From positions 7,736 to 71,735 of the forward strand of contig DAPM01000011.1 in NCBI GenBank assembly GCA_002502135.1: a stretch of DNA of 64,000 bases, written 5' to 3'. The notes beneath the pieces were generated by a model. That model was not told the DNA's origin, did no database searches, and saw only the letters and a list, made by a program, of their open reading frames with translations. The number at the start of each line of letters is the position of its first letter. Within the stretch, counting starts at the first letter, position 1. The translations under genes and the position numbers were made by a program. This stretch comes from an archaeon UBA543 (GTDB taxonomy: Archaea; Undinarchaeota; Undinarchaeia; Undinarchaeales; UBA543). Shown piece after piece: positions 57,218 to 61,719 of this stretch.

Positions 57218-57292
57218 TGGCAGGCCCGCCGAGAGTTGAACTCGGGTCTGTAGCTCCGCAAGCTACCATGATATCCACTACACTACGGGCCC
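57218..57292 (-). tRNA. tRNA-Arg (anticodon GCG), CCA encoded
   Basis: Minus strand reads GGGCCCG TA GTGTAGTGGATATCAT G GTAGC TTGCGGA GCTAC AGAC CCGAG TTCAACT CTCGG CGGGCCT G CCA. Confidence 0.85.
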
Positions 57293-57404
57293 ATTTTCCA
57301 ATGACGCTTGGCATACGAGTTTTTCACACTTAACCAAGCGGATACGAGCCGCGCAGCGGCCTCTCGCCCTCCGTGAGAAGACGGAGCTACTACTACGGGC
57401 CCAT
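57293..57404 (-). other. duplicate of the tRNA-Arg(GCG) 5' end followed by a ~95-nt GC-rich three-hairpin block
   Basis: ATGGGCCCGTAGT occurs at 57404-57392 and again at 57294-57282. Hairpins lie at 57369-57386, 57348-57360 and 57305-57340. There is no D-loop GG, T-arm or 3' acceptor, so it is not a tRNA. Confidence 0.6.
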
Positions 57405-57441
57405 CAATGCTTTAAAACCCTATAACTCTAGCTTTATATTC

Positions 57442-57969
57442 TTAACCCCCTACAAAATTAATAAACAATCCAGGCCAGTTGTGCAGAACAAAGTAGAACA
57501 TCATCATAAAGAACGTACCCATTATCAAGTACTTAATGAAATTCTCATGGTATGTGAAGAATCGGAAACCTTCTCGTATAAGTTCTGCAAACAATAGGAT
57601 TATGATAACTGGTATGAAATAATTCTGCAAAGTCAGCAAACTTGCGAAAATCGCAACAAATAGCATATGCAGTGTGTCCATTAGTGTCAGTATTGGATTG
57701 TAAATTCCAATCCACCCACTCACTGTATTTGTTATGCTTGTGCTCAGAATCGCTATGTACGCACACACCCAGAACCCGTAAGTTATTGCAACAAACACCA
57801 TCAGTATGCTGTGCACTTCCAAATTCATTGAGTGATAAATCAAATTCGACCTACTCAGAACACATATCAATATCAGCCAGAGAAGAAGTGTTGTTTTTCC
57901 AGGAAGAACAAAGCGCGAGAGGCCGAGAATTAGCACTATGGATAGTATGTCCAATGCATGTCCTTTCAT
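57442..57969 (-). CDS. polytopic membrane protein, family member 4
   Basis: I prefer the ATG at 57969 (MKGHALDIL). The track start at 58053 overlaps tRNA-Arg(CCT). Family motifs are SRSNLIYHSMNLEVHS and GIYNPI. Confidence 0.5.
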   Translation of the reverse strand: MKGHALDILSIVLILGLSRFVLPGKTTLLLWLILICVLSRSNLIYHSMNLEVHSILMVFVAITYGFWVCAYIAILSTSITNTVSGWIGIYNPILTLMDTLHMLFVAIFASLLTLQNYFIPVIIILLFAELIREGFRFFTYHENFIKYLIMGTFFMMMFYFVLHNWPGLFINFVGG

Positions 57970-58047
57970 TACCACAGTTACCCTCTCCTTATCCCAATAT
58001 TTTAGTAACCAAACTTTATTAAGTTTTGTATAGTGGAAAATAAAAAG

Positions 58048-58122
58048 CACCACCGGAGAGATTTGAACTCTCGACCTTTTCCTTAGGAGGGAAACGCCTT
58101 ATCCAAACTAGGCTACGGTGGT
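58048..58122 (-). tRNA. tRNA-Arg (anticodon CCT), CCA not encoded
   Basis: Minus strand reads ACCACCG TA GCCT AGTTTGGATA AGGC G TTTCC CTCCTAA GGAAA AGGTC GAGAG TTCAAAT CTCTC CGGTGGT G. Confidence 0.8.
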
Positions 58123-58134
58123 AATTTTTGAAAT

Positions 58135-59874
58135 CTACATCCTGTTCGGTTCTTCAATTCCAAGAAGATACAAGCATTTTTGTAGGGTTTTATATGTTGC
58201 GATTACCAGTGCCAGGCGGGCATTTCTCAATTCCGGTGTTTCAGCTTCAATAACTGGATTAGTTGTATAGAAAGCGCTGAATTTATCAGCCAAAGCATAA
58301 GTGTAATTTGCAACTATGTGAGGTTGGTATGTTTCTGCAGATTCTCGAATCACCATTGGAAGTTTGCTAATCTGCTTTATCAATCTCTGTGAATCTTTGT
58401 TATTCAATAGTTTGAAATCAACATTAGCAGAAGATTTCTTTCCAGCTTTCTCAATAATTCTCTTTGCTCTTACAGTTGCATATTGGATATACGGTCCAGT
58501 GTCTCCTTCAAATTCAAGAGCAGTATCCCAGTCAAAGAAAATTGTCTTGTTGTTCCCAACATTCAGCATACTATATTTCATTGCAGCAATTGTGATTTTC
58601 ATTGCCAATTCTTTTTGCACCTTTGGTACAATTTCTGGATTTCTGTCATGAACTTCACTCATAGCTTTCTTCATCATCTCATCTCTTAAATCTGCATACA
58701 GAATTGCAGTTCCTTCTCTGGAACTCATCTTTCCTTCCTTCAAAGTAACTAATGAATACGCTAGGTGGTGACACTTTTTCGCTTTCTTGAATCCCATTAG
58801 TTCAAGTGTCTTGAATAATTGTTGGAAGTGGAGCCGCTGTTCTGAACCAACAACATAAACTGATTTATCAATCTTGAATTTCTTGAACTTCTCTTCAGCA
58901 AGTGCCAAATCTTGTGTTGAGTAAAGTGCTGTTCCATCGCTTTTCAATAAAAGCCACACTGGCAATCCCTCTTTTTTCAAATCAATAATTGTAGCGCCTT
59001 TGCTTCTTTTTGCAAGTTTCTTCTTTCTTAATTCTTCAATAATTTCCTTGCCTCTTGGTTTCAAATCGCTCTCATAAAAGTCCTCATCAAAATGAGCATC
59101 AAGCTCCTTGTAAATTTCCTTAAATTCATCCACACTCCAGGTTCTAAACTGTTTCCACAACTTAGTTATTTCTTCTTCATCCTGTGCTTCCAAATGCTTG
59201 AGGATCTCACTTACTTCTTCTTTTTTATCTGGGTCCTCTTCTAGTCTTCGACATGCATCAACGTAAATCTTGTTAATCCATTTTGAAACATTTGTATGGG
59301 CTTTCTCACCCTCGTGGAAGTTCTTGTAGCACCACAATGTTTTAGCAACATGCATCCCAATATCATTGAAAAGATTTGCCTGAATCACATCATGTCCTGC
59401 CTCTTTCATTATTCTTGACAGACTTTCTCCAAGAGTTGTGTTTCTAACATGTCCAATATGGAAAGCTTTCAGCGGGTTAGGCTGGCTGTACTCAATCATT
59501 ACTTTGTCCTTCTGTTTCTCGCCTTTTCCAAAAGAGTCTTTCTGAGCTTCAGTAACAACTGCTTTAGCAAATTCTCCGAATTTTAGGAAAAAATTAACAT
59601 ATGCGCCTGCTAGTTTTATCAAATAAACACTGCGCGGTCTTCTGACTTTGTCAATAATATCTTCAGCAATTTTTCTTGGGCTGACTTTCTTTATTTTCCC
59701 AATTGGGAATGAAATACTACAGGCCAAGTCGCCCATTTTGTAGCTTGGTGGCTCTTCAATATGATTTGCAAGTTTCAGTTTTTTCAAATGAGTTTTCGGA
59801 ATTGCTAGTCTAGGCATTACTTCTGCTACTGCTTTTGTAACATCTTCTCTTGCTTTTTGCCAAGGATCTTTCAT
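58135..59874 (-). CDS. argS: arginyl-tRNA synthetase
   Basis: 579 aa with an N-terminal Arg-tRNA-binding domain, HIGH-type HIGHVRN, an MSSR-type (KMSKS-like) motif and a C-terminal DALR-like domain. Confidence 0.9.
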   Translation of the reverse strand: MKDPWQKAREDVTKAVAEVMPRLAIPKTHLKKLKLANHIEEPPSYKMGDLACSISFPIGKIKKVSPRKIAEDIIDKVRRPRSVYLIKLAGAYVNFFLKFGEFAKAVVTEAQKDSFGKGEKQKDKVMIEYSQPNPLKAFHIGHVRNTTLGESLSRIMKEAGHDVIQANLFNDIGMHVAKTLWCYKNFHEGEKAHTNVSKWINKIYVDACRRLEEDPDKKEEVSEILKHLEAQDEEEITKLWKQFRTWSVDEFKEIYKELDAHFDEDFYESDLKPRGKEIIEELRKKKLAKRSKGATIIDLKKEGLPVWLLLKSDGTALYSTQDLALAEEKFKKFKIDKSVYVVGSEQRLHFQQLFKTLELMGFKKAKKCHHLAYSLVTLKEGKMSSREGTAILYADLRDEMMKKAMSEVHDRNPEIVPKVQKELAMKITIAAMKYSMLNVGNNKTIFFDWDTALEFEGDTGPYIQYATVRAKRIIEKAGKKSSANVDFKLLNNKDSQRLIKQISKLPMVIRESAETYQPHIVANYTYALADKFSAFYTTNPVIEAETPELRNARLALVIATYKTLQKCLYLLGIEEPNRM

Positions 59875-59925
59875 GATATTTATCTATTATGTTGAGTTGT
59901 TTATATATTAAGGGATTGTGGAATG

Positions 59926-59950
59926 GTTTTCAAGTTTTCAGGTTTTCAAG
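59926..59950. promoter_or_regulatory. three tandem 8-nt repeats upstream of the argS TATA-like box
   Basis: Plus strand reads gttttcaa gttttcag gttttcaag, which is TTGAAAAC CTGAAAAC TTGAAAAC on the argS strand. A TATA-like tttatatatta lies at 59900-59910, about 30 nt before the ATG. Confidence 0.35.
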
Positions 59951-59997
59951 AAGACTCGATAACTCGAAAACCCGAGAACTTCACTAGTTTGGTTGAG

Positions 59998-60074
59998 TGG
60001 TGGGCTCACAGGGATTCGAACCCTGGTTCGGAGGTCCGAAGCCTCCAGTGATATCCAAGCTACACTATGAGCCC
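59998..60074 (-). tRNA. tRNA-Arg (anticodon TCG), CCA encoded
   Basis: Minus strand reads GGGCTCA TA GTGTAGCTTGGATATCAC T GGAGG CTTCGGA CCTCC GAACC AGGG TTCGAAT CCCT GTGAGCCC A CCA. Confidence 0.85.
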
Positions 60075-60080
60075 ATGCTA

Positions 60081-60190
60081 TGGTGGGCCCAAGGGGATTT
60101 GAACCCCCGATTTGCAGCTTAGAAGGCTTGCGGAAGGCGAAGAAAAAACTCGCGCCCCTTGCCGCCTTATCCAGACTAGGCTATAGGCCC
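60081..60190 (-). tRNA. tRNA-Arg (anticodon TCT) with 32-nt intron in the anticodon stem (non-canonical position), CCA encoded
   Basis: Exon 1 (60190-60160) reads GGGCCTA TA GCCT AGTCTGGATA AGGC G GCA. The intron (60159-60128) reads AGGGGCGCGAGTTTTTTCTTCGCCTTCCGCAA. Exon 2 (60127-60081) reads GC CTTCTAA GCTGC AAATC GGGGG TTCAAAT CCCCT TGGGCCC A CCA. Splicing restores the stem GCAGC/GCTGC. Confidence 0.75.
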
Positions 60191-60930
60191 ATTTTTGTAA
60201 TAACAAAAGGGCTTAACTCCCTTTTTAATATTTTGTATCGCTGTTTTATTGAAGTATTTGGGGGTACAAAGCCATATCTCTTCCATATTTTATACTTTGT
60301 TAAATATACTGGATTCTTAAAACCAATTAAGTCTATCCATTTTTCTACGCGTGCACATCCTTCAACGCAAATAGAATATGCCACAGTGTTATTTCCCCCA
60401 ACTCTTTTATGTAATCTTGTAAAATATTTTATTCCTAATTTGTCTAACATTTTGCACATATCTTCAACCAAAATTTTAGCAACACATTTAATCTGAATTC
60501 TTGGGTAGTTATGATATTTTCTTTTAAATTCAATATATTTCCCATATCTCTTATCAAAATTTAAACAACCATCACCATCAGCAAAACCTCGCAAAAACGA
60601 AGCTAAAACTTCAGTATCCTCACTTTCTCTTATCTGTTTTGGAACTCGCATAGTGTATGTTTTATTACCTGGTTTAAAACCAAGATTATTAAAAAAATCC
60701 CCTATCTTTCTATCACAAGTATAAAATCCATAGACACTATTGCTCGTTTTTTCATGAACTCTCAAGATTATTCCAAAGTTATTTAAAAATATTTTTGTTA
60801 AATGATTATCATAGTACTCTCTATCTTCTGTAATATTTCCCCAGATGCAGACATATGCTTTTTGAAGGCAACCATCTGCGCAAAAGATTCCACAGATTTC
60901 TGCTAATTCTGGAGATATTTCAGTTTTCAT
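60181..60930 (-). CDS. free-standing LAGLIDADG homing endonuclease (double-motif)
   Basis: 249 aa and very AT-rich. The two LAGLIDADG-type motifs are GIFCADGCL and LRGFADGDGCL. The last four codons (ATG GGC CTA TAG) are supplied by the first 10 nt of the tRNA-Arg(TCT) gene. Confidence 0.8.
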   Translation of the reverse strand: MKTEISPELAEICGIFCADGCLQKAYVCIWGNITEDREYYDNHLTKIFLNNFGIILRVHEKTSNSVYGFYTCDRKIGDFFNNLGFKPGNKTYTMRVPKQIRESEDTEVLASFLRGFADGDGCLNFDKRYGKYIEFKRKYHNYPRIQIKCVAKILVEDMCKMLDKLGIKYFTRLHKRVGGNNTVAYSICVEGCARVEKWIDLIGFKNPVYLTKYKIWKRYGFVPPNTSIKQRYKILKRELSPFVITKMGL

Positions 60931-60984
60931 AGGTTATCACTTCTATTCTATTGTTATAAATTTTTGTTAACTCACACAAGTTAA

Positions 60985-61488
60985 TCACTTGTATGCTTCC
61001 GGAGCTTTCTCATAATCCATGCTGAATCGTTTTCTAAATTCCTTGTTAATCCAAAACTGCACTACTGTAAGACCTAAGAATAACACCATCACATTCAGAA
61101 GCGATCTTGAGAATGGATGATAATAAAGCAGAAAACCCATAACTGCTATCGGTATTGCAGTAACCACAGTAATTGTCAGTTGCGCAAGCATTCTTGCTCT
61201 TGGATTTTTGCAGTTCCCTTTCTTGTAAATCTCTGCAGCTACAATTCCCCAAGCACTTGCATATCTCTTTCCAAAACACATCCCTTTCGAAGTCTTATGA
61301 AGCATTGTCAGAGACAAAACAAGCACAATTGCACATGAAATATAGAATATTGAAGCAACTGGAGCGCTATTATACCTTAACCCAAGCATTCCATAAGCTC
61401 CAACACCAAGGTAAATCAGAATGAAAATATTCTCTATATCAACCCATAAATCTGCAACATCCTTGTACCTTTCTGTAATCTTTTTCAT
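60985..61488 (-). CDS. membrane protein (about 4 TM helices), function unknown
   Basis: 167-aa hydrophobic ORF. Confidence 0.45.
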   Translation of the reverse strand: MKKITERYKDVADLWVDIENIFILIYLGVGAYGMLGLRYNSAPVASIFYISCAIVLVLSLTMLHKTSKGMCFGKRYASAWGIVAAEIYKKGNCKNPRARMLAQLTITVVTAIPIAVMGFLLYYHPFSRSLLNVMVLFLGLTVVQFWINKEFRKRFSMDYEKAPEAYK

Positions 61489-61566
61489 CCTTTCAGAACT
61501 AGTTGAGGGTTGTTTATAAAGACTATCCTAAACCACTTTAGAACTTTTTTTAGCAATCCTTCATAA

Positions 61567-61719
61567 CTCCGCTGATATTTGAATTGGTTAAATTTGTGAA
61601 TTTATCATTGACTGGCGCTCCGGAGTGTGGCGCGTACTGCATGAAGCCCTATTCGCTTCGCGAAAGGGCTTAAACAATTCAACTGAAATTGGTTCGATTT
61701 GTTGAGTTAACTGTTTTAA
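61567..61719 (+). mobile_element. ~154-bp repeated structured element, copy B
   Basis: The core 61608-61695 is 81/88 identical to 36801-36888. It is bracketed by a 25-nt direct repeat (61542-61566 and 61720-61744, 23/25 identical). Confidence 0.7.

Follow-up and report, generated by a model that had tools for sequence, protein, structure and literature searches.

Introns at odd positions in archaeal tRNA genes, and several introns in a single gene, have been debated since they were found in Thermoproteales, Nanoarchaeota and ARMAN. The proposals made so far are intron "transposition" and protection against integrating elements; to our knowledge, no agent of archaeal tRNA intron gain has been identified. 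In fungal mitochondria, free-standing LAGLIDADG ORFs and mobile ORF elements occupy intergenic positions, often near tRNA genes, and are sometimes fused to the ends of host genes. In phages, collaborative (trans) homing has been described for the endonuclease F-CphI and the ORF-less psbA group I intron of cyanophage S-PM2, and for mobE and the nrdB intron of T4 (PMC6083498, PMC2790892, PMC2988022). The T4 SegB gene, located between tRNA-Arg and tRNA-Ile, drives preferential inheritance of the tRNA region, and in the "intronless homing" of seg/mob genes an endonuclease gene is retained more readily when it contains promoters of the host (PMC2988022).

The locus described here belongs to a tiny marine archaeon and was studied in a 64,000-nucleotide stretch of its genome (the window), in which the ORF of a LAGLIDADG endonuclease abuts a tRNA-Arg(TCT) gene. 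As in phage collaborative homing, a free-standing endonuclease gene adjoins a gene with an ORF-less intron and the two are co-inherited; by analogy, we propose that alleles lacking the intron are cut by the enzyme where the intron would insert. The setting differs, with an archaeal chromosome and a LAGLIDADG enzyme in place of Endo VII-like or HNH enzymes, and with a putatively protein-spliced BHB mini-intron in a tRNA gene in place of a self-splicing group I intron. The position of a free-standing homing endonuclease gene next to tRNA genes recalls T4 SegB, whereas SegB is a GIY-YIG phage enzyme with an intergenic target, without an intron and without fidelity to a single tRNA species. The archaeal rRNA-intron enzymes I-DmoI, I-Tsp061I and I-PorI have the same fold, are the closest structural matches and likewise combine a conserved stable-RNA gene target with a BHB intron; however, they are encoded inside the intron, while here the gene lies outside the RNA gene and the 32-nt intron has no ORF. 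The fungal mitochondrial ORFs, in contrast, are organellar, fused to the 3' ends of protein genes, and have neither BHB introns nor specificity for a single tRNA. Our literature search brought up no archaeal LAGLIDADG gene described as linked to a tRNA.

The ORF occupies positions 60181..60930 on the minus strand of the window (all features given below lie on the same strand) and encodes 249 aa from an ATG start, with two LAGLIDADG motifs, GIFCADGCL and LRGFADGDGCL. Its last codons, ATG GGC CTA TAG, run into the tRNA-Arg(TCT) gene, so that nt 1-10 of the tRNA (60190-60181) belong to both and the TAG stop (60183-60181) lies inside the tRNA gene. The GC content is 0.29-0.32 across 60200-60949, against about 0.34-0.48 in the flanks. 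These features had been described in the initial annotation, namely a two-motif ORF more AT-rich than its neighbours, with its own start, outside the 32-nt intron, and with its last 10 nt forming the start of the tRNA; all of them hold, the last by sequence and by the Rfam match of the tRNA. The HMM search that it had proposed supports the LAGLIDADG assignment: LAGLIDADG_3 of Pfam (PF14528) matched above its cut-off (E=6e-9, 36.4 bits vs 22.5), in the second domain only. The AF2 model (pLDDT 92, pTM 0.91) has a two-domain LAGLIDADG endonuclease fold, in which tandem alpha-beta-beta-alpha-beta-beta-alpha domains make up a saddle for DNA, and Foldseek related it to the endonuclease domain of the TliVMA intein (7qsu, E=2e-12), to I-Tsp061I (2dch, TMt 0.78) and to I-DmoI (TMt about 0.7); the profile of the endonuclease family also matches intein and intron endonucleases of the PDB. 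Among 34 aligned homologues the motif aspartate D120 (LRGFADGDG) is invariant and D19 (GIFCADG) is conserved in at least 90%. With the fold and the catalytic residues retained, the product is predicted to be an intact single-chain, two-domain LAGLIDADG endonuclease.

The gene is free-standing, encoded neither in an intron nor in an intein: it lies 5' of nt 1 of the tRNA, has its own ATG and shows no extein context. The DPANN family that contains it has at least 88 clusters; the closest relatives, all from other phyla, share only 53-55% identity with it, and in all 32 family loci examined the endonuclease gene is outside the tRNA. The premise of the initial annotation, that archaeal LAGLIDADG enzymes are normally found in introns or inteins, leaves out this large free-standing family.

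The tRNA-Arg(TCT) gene was matched by the Rfam tRNA model (RF00005) at 60190..60084 (43 bits), with a 43-nt insertion in the anticodon arm; ARAGORN, when run on the window, did not call it, and the exon and intron limits were set by hand, giving the anticodon TCT. Exon 1 (60160..60190, 31 nt, including the 10 nt shared with the ORF) is followed by a GC-rich mini-intron of 32 nt (60128..60159) at Sprinzl position 29/30, in the 5' strand of the anticodon stem, and then by exon 2 (60127-60084) and an encoded CCA (60083-60081). The next gene downstream, tRNA-Arg(TCG) (60001..60074), was found by both ARAGORN and Rfam and is intron-less. The cloverleaf of tRNA-Arg(TCT) forms only when the 32-nt intron is removed, and the spliced exons are identical to the tRNA-Arg(TCT) of one congener (G001) at 75/75 positions. 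The intron folds into a relaxed BHB-like structure rather than a strict one, with a 5-bp outer helix, small bulges and a 6-bp inner helix, and could not be aligned with the introns of the closest relatives. The splicing endonuclease EndA of the host was found (PF01974, E=9e-32).

A comparison with relatives, also suggested by the initial annotation, showed that both congeners (G001 and G002, loci L033 and L034) keep the gene order and lack the ORF. The left flank is a conserved membrane-protein gene (60985..61488, 167 aa), present in both congeners. In G002 it is followed after 44 nt by an intron-less tRNA-Arg(TCT), and G001 has the same flanks without the ORF and without the 29/30 intron; in the window, 794 nt, including the ORF, separate the two genes. 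Because the ORF has a low GC content (0.30 vs about 0.38) and is absent from congeners with the same flanks, we regard it as an insertion, the borders of which could not be aligned at the window locus.

The association with a particular tRNA extends to the family. The tRNA-Arg(TCT) gene adjoins the endonuclease gene in 30 of 30 loci (29 complete contig loci and the window), as it does at L133 and L136, while subfamilies adjoin other tRNAs, tRNA-Glu and a class II tRNA. Such linkage to one tRNA gene is expected of a site-specific selfish element.

Several sister loci preserve traces of a replaced tRNA end. The second LAGLIDADG gene of the genome (G000:C13, 674-1582) ends inside a tRNA-Glu(TTC) gene and forms a cassette with an intron and a replacement 5' end of this tRNA; nt 1-28 of the old tRNA-Glu are stranded upstream of the cassette and extend 4 nt (TCAT) beyond the position at which the new copy carries its intron. 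In the congeners this tRNA-Glu locus has neither the endonuclease gene nor the intron. At L133, which among the Arg-family relatives with usable context is the closest (55%), 22 nt of a stranded tRNA-Arg 5' end run up to the point where the new copy has its D-loop intron. At these two loci the stranded ends stop within 2-4 nt of the intron site, which gives indirect support to a predicted cleavage site at the point of intron insertion; the 4 nt at tRNA-Glu are an indirect hint of a 4-nt 3' overhang. A 13-nt tRNA remnant was found at L035, and tRNA 3' ends are stranded at L049 and L041. In the supply of a new tRNA end, with the old one left as a direct repeat, the loci G000:C13, L133, L049 and L041 resemble elements that insert into tRNA genes by means of an integrase; they differ in having no integrase or att site, in that the replaced end is usually the 5' one and bears an intron, and in the driver, a LAGLIDADG nuclease. 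The window locus, unlike such elements, has no repeat. A stranded tRNA-Arg 5' fragment in the spacer of the window, suggested by eye in an ATAG..TAG..GATAA register, was rejected: the best ungapped match was 13/31 (P=0.41 vs shuffles), no better than the match to other tRNAs.

The intron-bearing tRNAs were typed by direct reading of the anticodon loop and stems, since ARAGORN typing after deletion of each possible segment was too permissive and was discarded. As the host phylum comprises only 17 genomes, the gene and the intron were tabulated in a Woesearchaeota-type order. Family-wide, 16 of the 30 carrier loci have an intron at 29-31, vs 3 of 41 non-carrier genomes (Fisher P=2e-5, uncorrected for shared ancestry); the three genomes without the gene have the intron at 29/30. 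Of the intron sites, only 29-31 is enriched among carriers. The simpler rule that any tRNA-Arg(TCT) intron marks the gene was dropped, as canonical 37/38 introns are nearly universal in the Woesearchaeota-type order without the gene. The 29/30 intron is missing in 10 of 10 genomes of the same order as the host that lack the ORF. Within the genome itself, the two LAGLIDADG genes sit on the only two tRNAs, out of 35, with a non-canonical intron (P about 0.002), and across three congeneric genomes the gene and the intron are either both present or both absent at the two loci.

Based on these sequence comparisons, we consider it probable that the ORF encodes a homing endonuclease whose predicted target is the tRNA-Arg(TCT) gene without an intron; carriers would be protected by the BHB intron. 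The initial annotation had proposed a mobile homing gene directed at the tRNA-Arg region, and this part of its interpretation is supported by the absence of the ORF in congeners, by the linkage to tRNA-Arg(TCT) and by the intact predicted fold and residues. On this reading, about 0.8 kb carrying the gene was inserted immediately 5' of the tRNA in this lineage, and the 32-nt mini-intron at 29/30 arrived with it. The enzyme may recognise about 20 bp of the intron-less gene around 29/30 and cut it with a 4-nt 3' overhang, and repair off the carrier allele would then copy the intron along with exon 1 and the neighbouring endonuclease gene. The carrier chromosome would be immune, with its recognition site split by the intron, and the essential tRNA would stay functional through excision of the intron from the pre-tRNA by the host splicing endonuclease. 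Nine of the 30 carrier loci have an intron-less tRNA-Arg(TCT), which implies that the intron is not the sole route to immunity or that those enzymes cut elsewhere.

The nine loci speak for a second explanation, in which a free-standing homing endonuclease targets the flank or junction of the tRNA (the acceptor end and neighbouring DNA) and the introns are unrelated passengers. The 3' end of the ORF can lie against the 5' or the 3' end of the tRNA, and these two, read inward, start with the same acceptor 7-mer; in addition, tRNA-Arg(TCT) is rich in introns without the gene in one order, and T4 SegB provides a precedent by cleaving a tRNA intergenic region (PMC2988022). Nevertheless, a passenger intron is disfavoured by the joint presence and absence of the gene and the non-canonical intron at two loci in three congeneric genomes, by old tRNA ends that stop at the intron site and not at the edge of the gene, and by the enrichment of 29-31 introns among carriers, and we regard a target restricted to the flank as rather unlikely.

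Even less probable, in our opinion, is a domesticated, WhiA-like DNA-binding protein with the LAGLIDADG fold and a host role such as regulation or protection of the tRNA-Arg(UCU) gene. The constant neighbourhood of the same tRNA gene would suit such a role, as would the strong constraint on the sequence: dN/dS in the endonuclease family is 0.06-0.13 (about 0.1), by which the family is under purifying selection. Purifying selection is compatible with a host function as well. One source labels a homologue WhiA, the WhiA structure is found among the fold matches (rank 35), and the arrangement appears to be fixed, as it is identical in four marine metagenomes sampled in 2014-2023. In eight metagenome runs only the carrier form was assembled for this organism, with no sign of ongoing homing among contigs, which drop rare variants; short "joints" that skip the intron were detected in the metagenomes, but they come from the tRNAs of other organisms and are not host alleles. 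Against domestication, however, the gene was found in only 1 of 17 genomes of the host phylum and in 2-3 of 151 in the Woesearchaeota-type order, and is absent from both congeners. Judged from these genomes, its distribution is far too patchy for a host function. Conservation of position together with purifying selection, which the initial annotation would have read as a sign of such a function, was indeed seen; the patchiness speaks against the function itself. Family copies are pseudogenised at L053, L065, G106 and G061, the orientation of the gene relative to tRNA-Arg(TCT) varies among the 30 loci (tandem in 18, convergent in 7 and divergent in 5), and the ORF has no HTH domain. Furthermore, both catalytic aspartates are conserved in the ORF family, in contrast to WhiA, in which they are not known to be conserved.

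The other part of the initial interpretation, that the ORF is a relic of a large ORF-bearing tRNA intron with the 32-nt mini-intron as its remainder, is very improbable, as the ORF lies 5' of nt 1 of the tRNA and not between exons, no exon fragment was found upstream of it, the relatives examined all have the gene outside the tRNA, and the BHB-like pairing sought between the region upstream of the ORF and its end or the tRNA 5' end does not bridge the ORF (-16.5 kcal/mol vs a shuffle mean of -18.1).

If a homing enzyme with a protective intron is the correct reading, collaborative homing would be extended from phage group I introns to protein-spliced introns of archaea. Part of the fragmentation of DPANN tRNA genes would also be explained, and the family would provide a natural collection of LAGLIDADG enzymes whose specificities are related but shifted, all on a very conserved substrate. 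The locus offers a candidate agent (an enzyme of 249 aa), a 75-bp candidate substrate (the intron-less tRNA-Arg(UCU) gene) and a predicted resistant allele with a 32-nt intron, and thus makes the spread of tRNA introns in archaea open to experiment. Tentatively, we suggest a wider view, in which the tRNA genes of DPANN may face continual attack from a guild of LAGLIDADG endonucleases, every lineage having its own tRNA species and each cassette carrying its antidote in the form of a replacement tRNA end with a site-splitting BHB intron, so that homing would create and spread non-canonical and multiple introns. In that case, endonuclease-driven homing would be their long-sought source in archaea, and successive shifts of specificity along the gene would have given rise to introns in the D-loop, at 29-31, at 37/38 and in the T-loop. 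With homology supplied by the tRNA gene, cassettes could cross species and even phylum boundaries, and the 4-nt offset of the stranded tRNA end from the intron site would mark where the enzyme cuts.

A spacer of 54 nt (60931..60984) separates the stop codon of the upstream membrane-protein gene (TGA, 60987-60985) from the ATG of the endonuclease gene. Within it, a TATA-like AAAAATTTATAA (60965-60954) and, nearer the ATG, a Shine-Dalgarno-like GTGAT (60940-60936), both read from the sequence, are probably the gene's own expression signals; the spacer at L133 has the same layout, with a TATA-like motif about 30 nt before the ATG. At the other end, AAAATATTAAAAAGGG (60219..60234), 29-44 nt upstream of the tRNA +1 and within the last codons of the ORF (K-I-L-K-R), is likely the BRE/TATA promoter of tRNA-Arg(TCT), which would thus be placed in the endonuclease gene. 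Its TATA-like hexamer begins at -38, compared with ATAAAA at -33 in the ORF-less congeners and a TATA-like hexamer between -29 and -42 in most tandem family loci; the same peptide motif is found in convergent loci too, which is a caveat to the promoter assignment. The overlap with the tRNA is not a matter of chance, because it is recurrent: the ORF stops inside the tRNA or its intron in 10 of the 18 tandem family loci, and a stop inside the tRNA was also found at L003, L133 and L136, as at the tRNA-Glu locus. The stop used is typically the conserved U8-A9-R10 triplet or a D-loop UAG. In a gene without a stop of its own, only a few bases from the tRNA +1, translation enters the tRNA and ends at U8-A9-G10, so that a segment of the tRNA gene doubles as the C-terminal tail and the stop codon of a protein.

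According to our analysis, the open reading frame (ORF) on the minus strand from 60930 to 60181, taken from the ORF list and the sequence, is very probably a mobile homing-endonuclease gene linked to tRNA-Arg(UCU) and acquired together with an intron, which supports the proposal in the initial annotation of a mobile endonuclease with the tRNA-Arg region as its target. The ORF starts with ATG and encodes 249 aa with the motifs GIFCADGCL and LRGFADGDGCL. Motifs, profile match and fold all place the protein in the LAGLIDADG superfamily. The profile search suggested at the outset gave an above-threshold match of Pfam LAGLIDADG_3 to the second domain (E=6e-9), and the AlphaFold2 model built from 23 homologues (pLDDT 92, pTM 0.91) has two alpha-beta-beta-alpha-beta-beta-alpha domains. 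Its top structural matches were without exception LAGLIDADG homing endonucleases, including the TliVMA intein endonuclease domain (E=2e-12, structure search), the archaeal rRNA-intron enzyme I-Tsp061I (TM 0.78 on target, structure search) and I-DmoI; a PDB-sequence profile search with the ORF family agreed. The acidic residues closing the motifs, D19 and D120, were invariant or nearly so in 34 aligned homologues, and the GC content of the ORF was 0.29–0.32 vs. about 0.34–0.48 in the surroundings.

The final ORF codons, ATG GGC CTA TAG, are nt -2 to 10 of tRNA-Arg(TCT) (60190-60084, minus strand), which Rfam detected with a big insertion in the anticodon arm and which ARAGORN did not call in the window. 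The insertion is a 32-nt intron (60159-60128, minus strand) between positions 29 and 30, in the anticodon stem (5' strand); once it is removed, the gene reads as a normal tRNA-Arg(TCT) whose CCA is encoded. The two motifs, the AT-richness, the overlap and the intron length had thus been described correctly in every detail. The fold of the mini-intron is a bulge-helix-bulge (BHB) of the relaxed rather than the strict type. The genome encodes a tRNA-splicing endonuclease, and broad-specificity enzymes of this type are known from ultrasmall archaea, according to one study (PMC3239211). A TATA-like AAAAATTTATAA about 30 nt 5' of the ORF and GTGAT 6 nt 5' of its ATG are its putative expression signals. 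The promoter of tRNA-Arg(TCT) appears to sit within the final ORF codons, as the TATA-like hexamer starts at -38 relative to the tRNA, at -33 in the ORF-less congeners and between -29 and -42 in most tandem family loci. In phage T4, an essential-gene promoter inside an endonuclease gene is thought to favor retention of the endonuclease (PMC2988022). A 3' CCA is encoded by both tRNA-Arg genes adjoining the ORF (60081-60083 and 59998-60000).

The comparison with relatives that the initial annotation had recommended revealed that the ORF is absent from the syntenic locus of both congeneric genomes, G001 and G002, with the gene order kept. They share a dTMP kinase gene, two membrane-protein genes, a nucleotidyltransferase gene, a gene for a 167-aa membrane protein, tRNA-Arg(TCT), tRNA-Arg(TCG), argS and tRNA-Arg(CCT). 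In G002, 44 nt separate the membrane gene stop from tRNA-Arg(TCT), which is intron-less; in G001, a spacer of about 600 nt contains gene fragments, and the 137-nt intron of the tRNA occupies the canonical site rather than 29/30; the window has a 794-nt spacer containing the ORF. The spliced tRNA-Arg(TCT) is identical between the window and G001 (75/75). No 29/30 intron was found among ten same-order genomes without the ORF, eight being intron-less and two having a shared long canonical intron. Because these genomes have neither, both the ORF and the 29/30 intron are lineage-specific additions at a conserved locus. The intergenic site 5' of tRNA-Arg(TCT) is a hot spot for change.

The window's genome (0.73 Mb, 78% complete) is present in seawater metagenomes. 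Contigs of four marine metagenomes (2014, 2020, 2023) showed zero differences across 59000-61575, and four further metagenomes contained fragments of this region. Since no gene-less allele was found among their assembled contigs, the carrier arrangement is stable in marine metagenome contigs.

Homologues of the ORF protein fall into at least 88 clusters (37–55% identity) from Woesearchaeota-, Pacearchaeota-, Nanoarchaeota-, Micrarchaeota- and Iainarchaeota-type assemblies, and all are free-standing and about 250 aa long. Many of their C-termini resemble translated tRNA 5' ends (GPVA, ACSLAWIGRQ); therefore, 31 loci from species-representative genomes, 29 of them complete, were fetched and scanned for tRNAs, and the junctions were read by eye. 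The gene was directly adjoined by tRNA-Arg(TCT) in all 29 complete loci and in the window, as well as in two more metagenome contigs. The arrangement was tandem in 18 of these 30 loci, with the ORF 3' end overlapping the tRNA 5' end or 0–58 nt from it, convergent in seven, where the two 3' ends meet, and divergent in five, with about 95 nt between the 5' ends. In 10 of the 18 tandem loci, the reading frame closes within the tRNA or its intron, usually at U8-A9-R10 or a D-loop UAG, and the overlap in the window is thus a family trait. The divergent loci form a single clade (100/98) in the protein tree, the convergent arrangement has several origins, and sister branches differ in the intron content of the neighboring tRNA. 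More distant subfamilies adjoin other tRNAs: the second LAGLIDADG gene of the window's genome is on tRNA-Glu(TTC), and the reading frame of a relative in genome G014 closes within the D-loop of a class II tRNA.

Among the 30 carrier loci, tRNA-Arg(TCT) was intron-less in nine, had the canonical 37/38 intron alone in five and an intron at 29–31 in 16 (eight also with the 37/38 intron and one also with a T-arm intron). Canonical introns are nearly universal in the Woesearchaeota-type order with or without the gene, so 29–31 is the sole informative site. Genomes lacking the gene had a 29–31 intron in 0/10 cases in the window's order and in 3/31 in the Woesearchaeota-type order, where a fourth case (G061) adjoins a pseudogenized relative of the gene; Fisher's test gave P=2e-5, a value not corrected for shared ancestry. 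The window's genome has 35 tRNA genes, five with introns (three canonical, two non-canonical), and the two non-canonical cases are exactly the tRNAs with a LAGLIDADG gene on the 5' side (P about 0.002).

The second of these (G000:C13 1-2900, locus L002, outside the window) has a 302-aa LAGLIDADG gene with an N-terminal HTH-like extension, ending 15 nt inside tRNA-Glu(TTC). Both congeners keep the flanks there, but they lack a LAGLIDADG gene and their tRNA-Glu(TTC) is intron-less. Upstream of the gene remain the native promoter and nt 1–28 of the old tRNA-Glu (L002 612-639, GCCCTGGTGGTGTAGTCCGGTCAATCAT), followed by a 34-nt spacer, the gene, nt 1–24 of the new tRNA, a 35-nt intron at 24/25 and the tRNA remainder; the old fragment runs 4 nt (TCAT) past the intron site of the new copy. 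This offset would be expected from LAGLIDADG cleavage at the site of the intron that leaves a 4-nt 3' overhang, provided that repair relied on homology on the tRNA 3' side only, the other end being simply joined. The same design was found on tRNA-Arg(TCT) in L133, the closest relative of the window enzyme with the tRNA side on the contig (55% identity; the contig of a similarly close Micrarchaeota homologue, P0002, ends within the gene). Its 22-nt old 5' end precedes the gene by about 95 nt and stops at the D-loop, and an intron of the new copy lies at most 2 nt from that point. A 13-nt tRNA remnant is kept in L035 (P<0.005). In the convergent loci L049 (1118-1142) and L041 (2297-2320), a tRNA 3' end that spans T-loop to acceptor is stranded on the far side of the cassette, with an acceptor sequence that differs from that of the functional neighbor; these stranded ends imply insertion at the T-loop with a replacement 3' end. 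At the window locus no stranded remnant was detected (P=0.41); the insertion either used homology on both sides and was clean, or it left a remnant since lost.

A host function was weighed as an alternative. Conserved position and purifying selection (dN/dS 0.06–0.13 across five close pairs of family genes), which the initial annotation had proposed as a refutation of mobility, were both seen, yet the gene is rare, occurring in 1/17 genomes of the window's phylum (all those in the collection) and in 2–3 of 151 in an even sample of the Woesearchaeota-type order. None of 12 same-order relatives of the window has it, stop codons interrupt several family copies, and the closest relatives of the window protein belong to other phyla at only 53–55% identity. 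A site-specific homing-endonuclease life cycle fits better, because the gene is patchy, AT-shifted, retains its catalytic residues and always lies beside one conserved target. The idea that the ORF is a relic of a larger intron was not supported.

The most similar known system is collaborative, or trans, homing in phages, where a free-standing enzyme cleaves intron-less alleles of a neighboring gene that has an ORF-less intron, as in F-CphI with psbA and mobE with nrdB; the free-standing T4 SegB gene is likewise lodged among tRNA genes (PMC2988022, PMC6083498, PMC2790892). The window locus differs in its archaeal chromosome, its enzyme family, its protein-spliced BHB mini-intron and the tRNA gene body as putative target, and the replacement tRNA end supplied at sister loci resembles integrase-type elements. 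Full-text literature searches found no description of such tRNA-linked elements. We consider our overall reading of the window locus moderately probable; the chances are roughly balanced for the specific mechanism, in which cleavage would occur at the intron site and the intron would give immunity.

Several further features were observed at these loci. In G001 (L033 3325-3892, 3962-4098), the spacer contains a C-terminal argininosuccinate lyase fragment (Lyase_1/ASL_C2) and an opposite-strand ORF fragment, and the 137-nt intron is homologous to a 112-nt intron of genome G004. An AlaX-like editing-domain gene (tRNA_SAD) lies between tRNA-Arg(TCT) and tRNA-Arg(TCG) in G002 (L034 2319-2957), and the window and G001 are without it. 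Four tRNA-Arg isoacceptor genes in the window (57218-60190) are grouped around the arginyl-tRNA synthetase gene (58135-59874), namely tRNA-Arg(TCT) (60084-60190), tRNA-Arg(GCG) (57218-57292), tRNA-Arg(CCT) (58047-58122) and tRNA-Arg(TCG) (60001-60074), all on the minus strand, and this synteny is kept across the order; argS is 69 nt from the P0002 gene (L135). At least three introns occur within the tRNA-Arg(TCT) of L133. In the Woesearchaeota-type order, which is that of G041 (L066-L122), almost all typed tRNA-Arg(TCT) genes have the canonical intron and about a third also a D-loop intron, although these genomes are without the endonuclease family.

A conserved CACTGGACA, followed after 5–8 nt by a GCGC-like sequence, lies just 5' of the TATA box, about 40–70 nt before the endonuclease ATG, in L036, L037, L043, L046, L047, L050, L055, L061 and L133, starting in the last about 12 nt past the stranded tRNA fragment. 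This motif may act as an operator or mark the end of the cassette; the window has no clear copy of it. In one clade (L041, L048, L049, L053, L054, L060, L062), a small ORF (~47 aa) just 5' of the endonuclease gene encodes a domain of AbrB/MazE type (PF04014, E=2e-6) and stops at the endonuclease start codon or overlaps it; its product may regulate or inhibit the nuclease.
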